From Laetmonice hystrix (Eukaryota): DNA of 64,000 nucleotides. The position numbers and the translations under genes were made by a program. The stretch's first letter is position 1. Each line of letters opens with the position of its first letter. The notes under the pieces are model-generated. The model saw nothing but the letters and a program-made list of their open reading frames with translations, was not told the origin of the DNA and did not search any database. Below, one piece after another: positions 19,408 through 64,000 of this stretch. The stretch covers positions 124,001-188,000 of the forward strand of contig OZ249436.1 in NCBI GenBank assembly GCA_965235115.1, in the 5' to 3' direction.

Positions 19408-22400
19408 GTAGGTTATACTAGATATCATCGACAGAATACAAGGGTGCGTCTCACTTCGCCAAAATAATGATGGATGTCGCTGAGGCAAGGAACATTCGTC
19501 GCCGACCCCGTATACTACTCTTGTTTCACACTGCCCTTGCAATTTTTTCAGTCACTTGTTTTTCAAAGATGGCTGCTATTTAATGAAGCGTACCTCTGGA
19601 CGATCAATCGGATTCCTTATAACCTTAATCAGTGCATGCGAAGGACAATATGAGAAGTCTTCGTATCCCTAACCCTAACCTAACCCTAACCCTAACCCTA
19701 ACCTAACCCTAACCCTAACCTAAAATCAGTGCATGTGGAGGACAATACGAGAAGTCTTCATATCGGCAACATCATTTTGAAGATTCACTTTCTTCGTGGT
19801 TGGGGAAAATGTTTCATTTCCATAATCAGTGCATACAGAGGATTATGAGAAGTCTTCATATCGACAATGTCATGTTGGAGGTTCACTTTCTTTGTGTTTC
19901 TTGGTGTTTTTCGTGATTGTCTTTAGAGGGACGGTTTTAATCTGACTTCCTATCGCTCTCCTCACTTCTTCTTCTTCTTCTTCTTCTTCTTCTTCTTCTT
20001 CTTCTTCTTTTAAGTCTAGTCGACTTTTTTACCGTTCTGTAAAGCCCCTGTCCCATACTGCCGATTCCGTCTAAATATTTACGTCAGACGGTGTCAGACG
20101 GCGGCAAATTCATTTTTTTGCCATGAACGGTAGATAGAAAAGCATAAGTAACGTCTAAATACGTCTGAGAAACGTCTGCTTAAGTATGAGTAACGTCTTC
20201 ATTCAGCCCAGCTTACGGAACATCGAACGCCTGATTAACGTCTGCTTAAGTATGAGTAACGAACAAAACGGCTGAAAAACGTCTGAAATACGTCTATCAC
20301 CATTCAGTCTCCGTCTTAAAAAAAGGCCAAGCTCCGCCCATCGCCTCCTCACAACAGTCGTGGCTCATGGACAGTCCACATCGATCGTTCTGTGGGCCGA
20401 GAAGGCCCAGCCCGGTTTTTTGGTTTATTTTTCCACCGTGAGCAAGGATGAGCTGAGCAAGGGTGAGCATGAGCTCATTCTCGCCGTTTTCCTGTTTTTG
20501 AGTTGTTTTTTTTATGAGGCGTGCTCATGGTGAGCAAGCTCACGAAAAAACACCCCAAAAAACGAAATCAGTGAGCAAAACGGTGAGCATGAGCTTCTGC
20601 TCACCCTTGCTCAGTTCAGCTCAGCTCACCCTTGCTCACGGTGGAAAAGTAAACAAAAAACATTCATTATATTAAAAAGTATTGTTGTGAGAAGTTTTAG
20701 GTACGCAGGACCCAAGCTTTTTCAGTTGGTTGTCCGTTTCTGCCCGTCTGGCCGTTGCCAAGGCGTTTATCGCACTTATCTCTAACTTTTTGTATGCGTT
20801 TTAACCGTTATTCAGACGTGATTAGACGTTGATAGACGTTCCTCTATCCGTATCCATCCGTTTTTACCGTTGCCGGGAATGTTTCTTGGACGTTATTCAG
20901 CTGTTTTCTTGCCGGTTTCACCGTTCCATAGACGTATAGTGCGTTCCGTGGCTGGAGGCGAACGAGCTGTCCGCCTGCCCAACAGCCATAAAAGTCTAAA
21001 AACCGGTAAGATTCCGCCTGAGTAACGATGAAAACGGCAAAAACCTGCCAGAGTAACATTATGAGAACCGCCAATCGCGATCGGAAGCTGGCCGTTTCAA
21101 ACTTTGAACATGTCCAAAGTTTATACGGCTAGCGCCGTCTGTCAACGTCTAGATACGTCTGAAAACCAGCTGAAAAACAAATTAAAAACGAATGACAACG
21201 TCCAATAAACGTACGCCTTCGTTTTTCAGACGGAATCGTTAAACGGCGCAGTGGGACAGTAGCTTAAAGTTCAGAGCTTTCCTTACGTATAACGTATAAA
21301 ACGTCGTAATTTGATATAATTTTTAGACGACACTAGTGAGATAACGGATAACAGAAAGTACAATGATATCAACAGCTTTTATAACGTGTTTCATGCCAAA
21401 CTCGTATTGCAGCACACTGCCCCTATGTGTGTGTTACACCATGTTTCATGTCAAACTCGTATTGCAGCACACTGCCCCTATGTGTGTGTTACACCATGTT
21501 TCATGCCAAACGCGTATTGCAGCGCACTGCCCCTATGTGTGTGTTACACCATGTTTCATGCCAAACGCGTATTGCAGCACACTGCCCCTATGTGTGTGTT
21601 ACACCATGTTTCATGTCAAACTCGTATTGCAGCACACTGCCCCTATGTGTGTGTTACACCATGTTTCATGCCAAACGCGTATTGCAGCGCACTGCCCCTA
21701 TGTGTGTGTTACACCATGTTTCATGCCAAACGCGTATTGCAGCACATTGCCCCTATGTGTGTTCTACACCATGTTTCATGCCAAACGCGTATTGCAGCAC
21801 ACTGCCCCTATGTGTGTTTTACACCATGTTTCATGCCAAACGCGTATTGCAGCACATTGCCCCTATGTGTGTTTTACGCCGTGTTTCATGCCAAACGCGT
21901 ATTGCAGCACACTGCCCCTATGTGTGTGTTACACCATGTTTCATGCCAAACGCGTATTGCAGCACCCTCCCCCTATGTGTGTTCTACACCATGTTTCATG
22001 TCAAACTCGTATTGCAGCGCACTGCCCCTATGTGTGTGTTACACCATGTTTCATGCCAAACTTATGTTGCAGCACACTGCCCCTATGTGTGTTTTACGCC
22101 GTGTTTCATGCCAAACGCGTATTGCAGCACACTGCCCCTATGTGTGTGTTACACCATGTTTCATGCCAAACTTATGTTGCAGCACACTGCCCCTATGTGT
22201 GTTTTACGCCGTGTTTCATGCCAAACGCGTATTGCAGCACACTGCCCCTATGTGTGTGTTACACCATGTTTCATGCCAAACTTATGTTGCAGCACACTGC
22301 CCCTATGTGTGTGTTACACCATGTTTCATGCCAAACTTATGTTGCAGCACACTGCCCCTATGTGTGTGTTACACCATGTTTCATGTCAAACTTATGTTGC

Positions 22401-25400
22401 AGCACATTGCCCCTATGTGTGTGTTACACCATGTTTCATGCCAAACTTATGTTGCAGCACACTGCCCCTATGTGTGTGTTACACCATGTTTCATGTCAAA
22501 CTTATGTTGCAGCACACTGCCCCTATGTGTGTGTTACACCATGTTTCATGTCAAACTTATGTTGCAGCACACTGCCCCTATGTGTGTGTTACACCATGTT
22601 TCATGTCAAACTTATGTTGCAGCACACTGCCCCTATGTGTGTGTTACACCATGTTTCATGTCAAACTTATGTTGCAGCACACTGCCCCTATGTGTGTGTT
22701 ACACCATGTTTCATGTCAAACTTATGTTGCAGCGCACTGCCCCTATGTGTGTGTTACACCATGTTTCATGTCAAACTTATGTTGCAGCACACTGCCCCTA
22801 TGTGTGTGTTACACCATGTTTCATGTCAAACTTATGTTGCAGCACACTGCCCCTATGTGTGTGTTACACCATGTTTCATGTCAAACTTATGTTGCAGCAC
22901 ACTGCCCCTATGTGTGTGTTACACCATGTTTCATGTCAAACTTATGTTGCAGCACACTGCCCCTATGTGTGTTTCCGGAATCCCTGTATGCATGGCGGAT
23001 CTTGTTGGAACTACTTCGGCTTCCCGAGATGTTTCTGTCGCGAAGGATTTAGGGGTAAACGATGTGAGATAGGTACGTTTTGACAGGGTCTAGGTATTAC
23101 AAAAAAGTAGTTTATTAGTTTATAAACTAATAAATAGATAATAATTAGGCCTATAGTTTCTTATCTGGAATTACTTACTTACTAACTTACAATGTTGACC
23201 TATCGAAAACTAAATATTCTTCTCCTTTTTTTTCTTGTAGACATTGACGACTGTCCGCGAGCAAATTGTATGAATGGTGGTACATGTATAGACGGCCCTA
23301 ATAGTTTCACATGTCAATGTCCCATTGAGTATACTGGTCCTAGCTGTGAATTCGGTAAGTATATGTTGCATATGTTACATTTAGTCTGTACTTGAATCAT
23401 AAATATATGTTCGTAGATGGTCCTGGTATGAGATGTGAATGTATACATGTGATTATGTTGATGACGTACTTCTAGAACAATGACCTTTCACGTGGCAACA
23501 TTATGATCGTTTGCATACAATGTCTGTTGCCAGCGGTGGGGCTGTTGCATAAATTTCGCTAAAATTGCTATTGAATTTCAATGTCGATCTTAGCGATCGG
23601 GAATCTATGGAACGCCTCCCCCCTCCGGCTGGGATCATGAAACTTCACATATTACTTTCTAGCCATCATCATTTCTAACCATTTCGTTACCTTTCACCGT
23701 TTTGTAGCCATCATCAATTCTAACCATTCCGTTACCTTTCACCGTTTTGTAGCCATCATCAATTCTAACCATTTCGTTACCTTTCACCGTTTTGTAGCCA
23801 TCATCAATTCTAACCATTTCGTTACCTTTCACCGTTTTGTAGCCATCATCATTTCTAACCATTTCGTTACCTTTCACCGTTTTGTAGCCATCATCAATTC
23901 TAACCATTTCGTTACCTTTCACCGTTTTGTAGCCATCATCAATTCTAACCATTTCGTTACCTTTCACCGTTTTGTAGCCATCATCAATTCTAACCATTTC
24001 GTTACCTTTCACCGTTTTGTAGCCATCATCAATTCTTACCATTTCGTTACCTTTCACCGTTTTGTAGCCATCATCATTTCTAACCATTTCGTTACCTTTC
24101 ACCGTTTTGTAGCCATCATCAATTCTAACCATTTCGTTACCTTTCACCGTTTTGTAGCCATCATCAATGCTAACCATTTCGTTACCTTTCACCGTTTTGT
24201 AGCTATCATCAATGCTAACCATTTCGTTACCTTTCACCGTTTTGTAGCCATCATCAATTCTAACCATTTCGTTACCTTTTACCGTTTTGTAGCCATCATC
24301 AATTCTTACCATTTCGTTACCTTTCACCGTTTTGTAGCCATCATCAATTCTAACCATTTCGTTACCTTTCACCGTTTTGTAGCCATCATCAATTCTAACC
24401 ATTTCGTTACCTTTTACCGTTTTGTAGCCATCATCAATTCTTACCATTTCGTTACCTTTCACCGTTTTGTAGCCATCATCAATTCTAACCATTTCGTTAC
24501 CTTTCACCGTTTTGTAGCCATCATCAATGTTTTTCAGATGTTGATGATTGCGCGTGTCCAGTTCAGTGTTTGAATGGTGGCAGTTGCGTGGACGGCCTCA
24601 ACTCGTTCACGTGTGACTGTCCGACAGGGCTATATACGGGACCACTGTGTGAAACATGTGAGTTTGTTTGAATGTGCATCCATTCACACTCACACTGATC
24701 ACATCCCCCTGGAGCATGAGATGGTCACAAGAGACGAAAAATAATGGGGCGAGGGCTGCTATGTTCAAGTGGTTGTGTGTCAGACTACATATAATCATTT
24801 TTTCACTATCCCTCCCAAGTTTTTTTTTTGTTTTTTTGTTTTTTTGCAGTGCCAACAGATCACAAATTACGTCTGCATCTCGCAGTTGATGCCTAATGAC
24901 TGAACAGGATTATTTTAACCAGGAATATTCCCAGTATTACCATCGTCATTTCACACTATCTTCCATTACCGGCATCACAATAATTTATTAAACTGATATT
25001 TTTATTGAACCCTAGATATTAAAGGCTATATTCTTGAATGTTACAGCACTGGATGATTGTATAGGCGTGAACTGCAATGGGGGCACATGCATCGATGAGA
25101 TATTTAGCTATGATTGTGTATGTCCAACAGGATTTACAGGGGTAAACTGTGAAACAAGTGAGTAAATTGTTTTATTTCAGCTCTGTTAAAGGTATCACAT
25201 AAATTAGTTTGTGTAAGGAAAATAGGCTGAGCTTTAAAAAACAAGTAGGAGAAGATCGGACAAAGAAGGAAAGCAACCAAACAGTTACCAAACCTGATAC
25301 GCAGGTCTTACTTTAAAGGTGCTATTCGTCTCGCACAGAATGGCATTTCTCCTATCATACATTGTGCACATAGTACTAGAAACAATTCCTACCGATACCA

Positions 25401-63605: not shown

Positions 63606-64000
63606 GTAGGTCCATACCTCGTGCCTATAACAACCTTTTACATTATATACTGGCACACTCTGCCAAACAAGTAGGTCCATACCTCGTGCCTACAACAACC
63701 TTTTACATTATATACTGGCACACTCTGCCAAACAAGTAGGTCCATGATACATCGTGCCTATAACAACCTTTTACATTATATACTGGCACACTCTGCCAAA
63801 CAAGTAGGTCCATGATACATCGTGCCTATAACAACCTTTTACATTGTATACTGGCACACTCTGACATACAAGTAGGTCCATGATACATCGTGCCTATAAC
63901 AACCTTTTACATTGTATACTGGCACACTCTGACATACAAGTAGGTCCATGATACATCGTGCCTATAACAACCTTTTACATTGTATACTGGCACACTCTGA
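63596..64000 (+). repeat. 65-70 bp donor-containing minisatellite, same family as 48167-48698
   Basis: Repeated TGCCAAACAA|GTAGGTCCAT...TACTGGCACACTC running to the window end. Confidence 0.95.

Follow-up and report, generated by a model that had tools for sequence, protein, structure and literature searches.

Minisatellite arrays at the exon–intron junctions of a probable secreted multi-EGF gene in Laetmonice hystrix

We analysed a 64,000-nt stretch of the Laetmonice hystrix genome (hereafter the window; assembly GCA_965235115.1, contig OZ249436.1, positions 124001–188000), which carries a run of exons for EGF-like domains interspersed with tandem repeats. The window lies near the start of a 73.8-Mb contig, here called C1 (window = C1:124001-188000), in a genome of 627 Mb, and all coordinates given below are window positions unless labelled otherwise. 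A tandem array was present at 7 of the 30 EGF exon junctions, so that 7 of the 15 EGF exons were affected, and the arrays belonged to five mutually unrelated repeat families (best local scores between families of 5–9). We read these arrays, with a probability of about 0.75, as junction-spanning minisatellites of the kind called 'mirages' in lancelets and known from intron 7 of human F7, located in a gene probably encoding a secreted multi-EGF protein within an array-dense domain near the contig start. The phenomenon itself has already been described in lancelets and in a few human genes, and the locus adds another case.

The gene was delineated as follows. A six-cysteine scan identified 15 EGF units in the window, all of them on the + strand. 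All 15 exons had AG/GT borders, phase 1-1 and a length of 111–120 nt each (1,731 nt in total), and all exceeded the curated cut-off of 21.5 bits for the Pfam EGF profile (PF00008). The profile, the six-cysteine pattern and the symmetric phase 1 all indicate one EGF-like domain per phase-1 exon. Upstream, a script scan for an ATG followed by a hydrophobic stretch and a phase-1 GT located a candidate exon 1 (19308..19407, + strand) with a start codon, a 33-residue peptide with a hydrophobic core, and a phase-1 donor; this peptide is likely a signal peptide. Because a signal-peptide-like start with a phase-1 donor precedes a run of EGF exons, the gene product is most likely a secreted multi-EGF protein. 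We number the exons EGF1 to EGF15, where exon N of a preliminary description of the window corresponds to EGF N-1 (its exons 2, 4, 11, 13, 14, 15 and 16 are EGF1, EGF3, EGF10, EGF12, EGF13, EGF14 and EGF15).

Arrays were listed by Tandem Repeats Finder (TRF), which returned 86 rows in the window, and unit registers were read from the sequence printed in register. The junction arrays were arranged head to tail with 3.9–28.8 copies and 95–98% matches. Two of them are on the acceptor side. A 55-bp array of 28.8 copies (21387..22972, + strand) enters EGF1 (22953..23072, + strand) by 20 nt, and its unit joins ∼36 nt from the end of intron 1 to the acceptor and the opening ∼19 nt of EGF1. A 45-bp array of 19.4 copies (23656..24528, + strand) stops 9 nt short of the acceptor of EGF3 (24538..24657, + strand); its unit contains a CTAAC resembling a branch point, a pyrimidine run and a TTTGTAG resembling an acceptor. 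Local alignment to the 15 exons detected no exon sequence in the 45-bp unit (z = -0.2), and an inverted match of this unit to the start of EGF3 was rejected as no better than shuffled controls (z = -0.2).

The other arrays are on the donor side. The 63-bp family occurs beside EGF10 (42471..42587, + strand) with ∼8.3 units (42588..43112, TRF 42598–43112, + strand) and beside EGF13 (46706..46822, + strand) with ∼14.5 units (46823..47735, + strand), the latter starting exactly at the donor and having a higher-order 126/189-bp structure. Both arrays start, in register, at intron base +1, and the donor therefore opens each unit. An older degenerate unit, with a 76% tail match, was found past the 3′ end of the array beside EGF10. 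In the array beside EGF13, the unit can be divided into three parts (∼21, 22 and 20 nt), all of which start with a donor-like motif of the GTAA type (GGTAAA occurs 37 times in 14.5 units), and the 63-bp unit may have descended from an older, shorter donor repeat. Just after the same array, at ∼47719–47819 and 47921–48021, the summed contig depth rises to 10^4–10^5 versus ∼10^2 nearby, with many loose ends; this depth peak is a very high-copy interspersed repeat.

In the 57-bp family, the last ∼43 nt of EGF12 (46243..46356, + strand) represent copy zero and are followed, in register with the exon end, by one degenerate and 3.9 good copies (46357..46631, TRF 46408–46631, + strand), where each unit consists of ∼43 nt of the EGF12 exon end, the donor and ∼14 nt of intron. 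A 65-bp array of 8 copies (48166..48698, + strand) lies at the donor of EGF14 (48075..48188, + strand), with units in which the final ∼22 nt of EGF14 are followed by the donor and ∼43 nt of intron. A 68-bp array of the same family lies beside EGF15 (63492..63605, + strand), extending from 63596 to the window end at 64000 (+ strand) and on to window-equivalent position 64319, and its units bear an EGF14-type exon end, not that of EGF15.

We then evaluated the exon-derived content of the units by local alignment against the 15 exons with shuffled controls. Such content was detected in the 55-bp (z = 6.6), 57-bp (z = 5.2) and 65-bp (z = 6.1) units; it was not significant in the 63-bp unit, and it was found in none of seven non-junction intronic arrays of the locus (z at most 1.9). 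An authentic exon–intron boundary lies inside the unit in the 55-, 57- and 65/68-bp families and not in the 45-bp family. The preliminary description, which had reported five unrelated repeat families at splice sites, 7 of 15 EGF exons affected and arrays of decoy splice sites, was right in its observation, and the pattern is sharper than it stated: the arrays are junction-derived, real and old, and form a remarkable cluster. One detail needs correction, in that the start of the 63-bp arrays ∼15 nt after the donor corresponds to the TRF start at EGF10, where the true start is intron base +1.

Assemblies are error-prone over long tandem arrays, and the pattern could in principle be an assembly artefact or stem from an inserted mobile element with internal repeats. 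This explanation is barely credible here, as contigs built from the reads of one sample cross the exon-to-array borders without differences, the units bear structured variants, and the families are found only at the gene and its partial copy (see below), with three of them built from the gene's own exon sequence. Matches to the 63-, 45-, 55- and 65-bp families were confined to this gene, a partial copy of it at C1:3.51 Mb, and single-copy paralogous junctions; the 45-bp family occurs only at this locus and the 65-bp family only at the flanks of EGF14 and EGF15. A dispersed repeat or transposon with internal tandem repeats was accordingly rejected, the families being local rather than scattered. 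No Rfam family was matched in the window.

The number of splice motifs equalled the number of units in all seven arrays, and the motif was intact in nearly every unit. The 55-bp array contains 29 acceptor motifs in 28.8 units, that is, 28 decoy acceptors besides the authentic EGF1 acceptor, and the 45-bp array contains 19 acceptor-like motifs. We counted 9 and 15 donor motifs for the 63-bp pair of arrays, 8 and 11 for the 65/68-bp pair, and 5 for the 57-bp family. The decoys totalled ∼90, of which ∼47 were acceptor-like and 43 were donors; their motif strength equals that of the authentic sites. In the region of the 55-bp array (21320–23083), no stop codon occurs in any of the three + frames along 1.7 kb, versus 37–39 stops per frame on the opposite strand. 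A coding potential of this array was rejected, as the stop-free state does not go beyond chance: it arises in 5.8% of shuffles, and none of the 13 variant types creates a stop (P = 0.14).

Intact decoys as strong as the authentic sites could suggest a selected function, in which the repeated signals recruit splicing factors to weak sites or long introns, or offer regulated alternative sites. Two further observations point the same way: the lowest donor scores (6 of 9) belong to EGF10, EGF13 and EGF14, all of which bear arrays, and the arrays predate the duplication of the exons. However, homogenisation of the arrays alone predicts high unit identity, the use of a decoy donor would meet a stop or shift the frame, and the open + frames of the 55-bp array are, as described above, within chance. 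We consider a selected function very improbable.

To measure the proximity of arrays to junctions, we used the 13 array blocks with a period of 40–90 bp between positions 21300 and 64000 and a distance threshold of 10 nt. Six of the 13 blocks came within 10 nt of a junction, and one more came within 51 nt. Under uniform placement 0.13 blocks were expected within 10 nt (P = 1.8e-9), and under the stricter placement of each array within its own intron 0.49 were expected (P = 2.6e-7), where these and the following P values ignore that the distance thresholds were set post hoc and that the window was chosen for this pattern. When paralogous pairs were counted once, 4 of 11 families remained within 10 nt (P = 3.4e-6 for uniform and 3.5e-4 for own-intron placement), and among all families with a period of 10 bp or more, 4 of 25 did (P = 2.7e-4).

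The setting of the gene is rich in arrays. In four samples taken within the first 3.5 Mb of C1, arrays with a period of 10–200 bp make up 35–55% of the sequence, versus 7.1% in 21 other gene loci. According to our own grouping, of the 13 donor-octamer arrays recorded over the first 31 Mb of C1, ∼7 fall in its first 4.3 Mb, a clustering in keeping with a domain of dense arrays at a chromosome end. With minisatellites making up a third to half of the local DNA, contact between some arrays and exons is to be expected, and a gene may be noticed for having many such contacts. Such a chance cluster is compatible with the array density, with the choice of the window for its pattern and the post hoc thresholds, and with the lack of a junction excess in other loci and in a genome-wide octamer count described below; in addition, short introns make proximity cheap for the 57-bp, the second 63-bp and the 68-bp arrays (per-array p of 0.06–0.18). 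On the other hand, 4 of 11 families were still within 10 nt under the own-intron null with paralogous pairs counted once, and proximity alone gives no exon sequence in units, yet three families contain it. We thus regard a chance cluster as unlikely.

Several results weigh against our reading of the arrays as junction-spanning minisatellites, or against its extension beyond this gene. In 12 other EGF loci with 56 exons and 112 junctions, none of seven arrays was within 10 nt of a junction, where 0.29 were expected. In ten Sushi loci, two of which lie inside one giant open frame, 1 of 9 arrays was at a junction, which is about chance for exon-dense loci; the search offered few independent loci, 22 of its 30 being within one giant open frame. 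For a coarse, annotation-free genome-wide count, we searched for a consensus donor octamer occurring three times with a spacing of 38–68 nt, and compared the result with mirror-image controls. The two donor octamers gave 1,284 and 1,129 matches and the controls 1,190 and 1,594 (ratios of 1.08 and 0.71; sums of 2,413 and 2,784), showing no excess, although the count tallies matches rather than arrays, covers consensus donors only and, by our rough estimate, rules out no more than a large excess. Within the window, the enrichment comes from 11 families at a single locus selected for its odd look. The term junction-spanning is weaker for the 45-bp family, which lacks exon sequence and stops short of the acceptor, and for the 63-bp family, the exon content of which is not significant. 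Furthermore, we infer where the exons begin and end and that the decoys are silent, and a microhomology of 4 nt, reported below, is weak evidence for any particular mechanism.

The single Sushi case is a genuine junction array in a gene unrelated to the EGF gene, at C18:16.67 Mb (L049:1658-1945). Its 46-bp unit, repeated at least 6 times, consists of the last 9 exon nucleotides, the donor and 31 nt of intron. A 23-bp AT-rich repeat just inside an intron of an EGF gene on contig C29 was a weak candidate, which was inspected and rejected as a junction array. As for the gene families searched, an initial look returned 1,446 candidate EGF exons genome-wide, and very long EGF exon runs with whole exon + intron units of ∼280–370 bp were found at C29:4.02-4.14 Mb, C20:10.98-11.0 Mb and C20:7.37-7.48 Mb. 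An uninterrupted open frame of 2,437 residues with dozens of Sushi domains was found at C2:42.06-42.07 Mb.

Judged by their sequence relationships, the seven arrays represent five births. Two single-unit matches of the 55-bp family at C1:19.78 Mb proved to be the acceptor junctions of two EGF1-like exons in a paralogous gene, where the homology extends upstream of the position at which the array in the window starts and a 4-nt repeat (TTTC) bounds the 55-nt segment. Because this paralogue keeps a single-copy junction with continuing flank homology, the comparison demonstrates that the 55-bp array arose by amplification, in place, of one of the gene's own junctions. EGF11 lacks an array, but its donor flank shows homology to the 65-bp unit, in the state of a single or decayed copy. 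Both the single-copy 55-bp paralogue and the unamplified EGF11 flank indicate an origin by local duplication.

The remaining two arrays are explained by spread. EGF10 and EGF13 are 89.7% identical in their exons and 97.7% identical in their arrays, and their flanks are unalignable, so that only exon + array are common to them. EGF14 and EGF15 are 95% alike in the first 85 nt and only 69% in the last 29 nt, identifying EGF15 as a mosaic exon beside which the array carries the EGF14-type end. The mosaic (63492–63605) points to patchwise conversion among EGF exons. The partial copy of the gene at C1:3.51 Mb contains an EGF12-like exon, ∼1.5 57-bp units fused to a 30-copy 63-bp array, and an EGF16-like exon, followed by the same downstream 37-, 21- and 34-bp arrays as in the gene. 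Between the gene and this copy, introns are ∼95% identical, exons 86–89% and arrays 97–98%. From these comparisons, we conclude that the arrays predate the duplications and have been kept alike across loci. Separately, the exons at 46243–46356 and window-equivalent 64510–64623 are less alike than their adjoining introns in the comparison with C1:3512244-3514586, and the EGF12-like exon of the copy is shorter by 6 nt; the lower exon identity could reflect exon conversion, diversifying change or decay of the copy.

The preliminary description had proposed that recombination or microhomology between paralogous EGF exon ends makes the arrays; on this view, tandem-domain genes would be especially prone to them. 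The exon modules and arrays common to EGF10/EGF13, EGF14/EGF15 and the 3.51-Mb copy, the arrays (97–98%) being more alike than the exons (86–90%), and the mosaic EGF15 all support such exchange as a means of spread. It does not account for the births of five unrelated families, though, and 56 EGF exons in 12 other loci are without a junction array, while the closest EGF1 paralogue retains a single-copy junction. The published cases and the Sushi array also lie outside EGF tandem-exon genes: in lancelets, junction arrays are described in Adh3, globins and PGBD5, which are genes without tandem domains (PMC3087553, PMC3902484), and human F7 has one as well, contrary to the suggested dependence on tandem domains. 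As the source of the arrays, this mechanism is quite unlikely. The seven arrays go back to five origins, given the EGF14-type end beside EGF15 and the exon + array common to EGF10 and EGF13. An excess of arrays at junctions was seen within the locus (6 of 13 blocks versus 0.13–0.49 expected) but not outside (0 of 7 arrays in the 12 EGF loci and no octamer excess). Transcription- or splicing-coupled breaks, the other cause suggested earlier, found no support in the present observations. The earlier interpretation is therefore partly supported: a junction-biased process is possible but unproven, and a special birth mechanism was not shown.

For junction-spanning minisatellites, the events may be arranged as follows. 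A segment of 45–68 nt including or touching a splice site would be duplicated in tandem, as the paralogue documents for the 55-bp family and as we infer for the rest, probably via slippage at short microhomologies of a few bases. Unequal exchange, presumably very active in this domain, would then expand the arrays to 4–29 copies and keep the units alike. Two of the five families gained a second junction, either with a duplicated exon module or via exchange between paralogous modules. By analogy with published cases, the arrays would be tolerated if the spliceosome picks the exon-proximal site, that is, the first donor or the last acceptor, leaving the ∼90 decoys intronic.

Similar arrays have been reported in other animals. 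The lancelet literature describes mirages as minisatellite-like duplications of intron/exon boundaries at 5′ and 3′ borders that leave splicing undisturbed and arise by an unclear mechanism (PMC3087553, PMC3902484). As in these cases, the units in L. hystrix span the exon–intron border, both border types are affected and the AG/GT is reiterated; array interiors evolve in concert with diverging edges, and units range from tens of bp to ∼160 bp. Unlike in the lancelet cases, five unrelated families with up to 29 copies occupy seven junctions of one gene. For lancelet mirages, both splicing and length instability are documented. In intron 7 of human F7, the 37-bp repeat begins with a unit spanning the boundary, and normally no donor but the most upstream one is used; IFI6/6-16, CBS, LMNB2 and the PDGF A-chain gene are similar (PMC1557585). 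The boundary in the first unit and the identical pseudo-donors after the authentic one are shared with our locus, whereas those cases have a single donor-side array in one intron and ours has acceptor-side arrays too, with several arrays per gene.

In human segmental duplications, a link has been drawn between tandem repeats at exon–intron boundaries and the appearance of new introns (PMC2812944), and the Rogers model derives intron gain from the tandem duplication of an AGGT-containing segment (PMC3265369, PMC4974935; discussed in PMC3087553). A duplicated junction-like segment supplies extra usable splice signals both in that model and here. In contrast to the model, no new intron or exon was shown at our locus, and the copies appear inside existing introns. 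In the literature searched, we found no genome-wide statistical treatment of such junction arrays.

The rest of the gene was annotated as follows, all on the + strand. From the cysteine scan, borders and Pfam, EGF2 was placed at 23241..23354, EGF4 at 25047..25157, EGF5 at 25793..25912, EGF6 at 28573..28686, EGF7 at 31922..32035, EGF8 at 32524..32637 and EGF9 at 39035..39148, and the same evidence placed the array-bearing EGF1, EGF3, EGF10, EGF13 and EGF14. EGF11, which is without an array, lies at 45862..45975. A further EGF exon was found just past the window end (window-equivalent 64510–64623). Among the arrays away from the junctions, a 71-bp intronic array (27359..28135) is 437 nt from the nearest junction and a 75-bp intronic array (40470..42350) ends 120 nt before EGF10, both without exon content, and 74-bp and 52-bp arrays (53252..54745) lie deep in the 15-kb intron. 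A C-rich 12-bp array of ∼5 kb and ∼417 copies (34014..38967), pyrimidine-rich on the sense strand, ends 67 nt before the EGF9 acceptor.

Elsewhere in the window, a G-rich 34-bp satellite was found at 1–6543, 10906–12333 and 15909–17094 (∼190, 42 and 34 copies, respectively), broken by two long open reading frames of the long interspersed nuclear element type with endonuclease and reverse-transcriptase domains (6880–10455 on the + strand and 12636–16004 on the - strand). Interstitial telomere-like hexamer runs of the CCCTAA type occur in both orientations at 19667–19720, 29189–29227, 44960–45011 and 53174–53227, one of them in intron 1. A reverse-transcriptase fragment (54651–55220, in a region at 54538–55223) lies in the 15-kb intron, and the 52-bp array overlaps its start.

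The bias at this locus may reflect a bias at birth, the greater persistence of arrays that are tied to a unit under selection, or merely a fortunate clustering. Whether such arrays form or persist preferentially at junctions is the question that the locus raises, with no sign of a genome-wide rule here. An array of identical splice sites offers a natural experiment on the choice that the spliceosome makes among equals, and junction arrays have been proposed as a route to new introns. With five independent arrays in one gene, on both donor and acceptor sides, ∼90 decoys and an unamplified paralogue, this locus would be an unusually rich test case. We tentatively suggest, while holding it to be rather doubtful, that splice junctions in array-dense chromosome-end domains are preferred or longer-lived seeds of minisatellites, possibly because a unit with an exon end and a splice site would be held by selection, could not be deleted and would keep re-seeding and homogenising its array. 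If this is true, such a gene would steadily gain decoy sites, the raw material for new introns or exon extensions.

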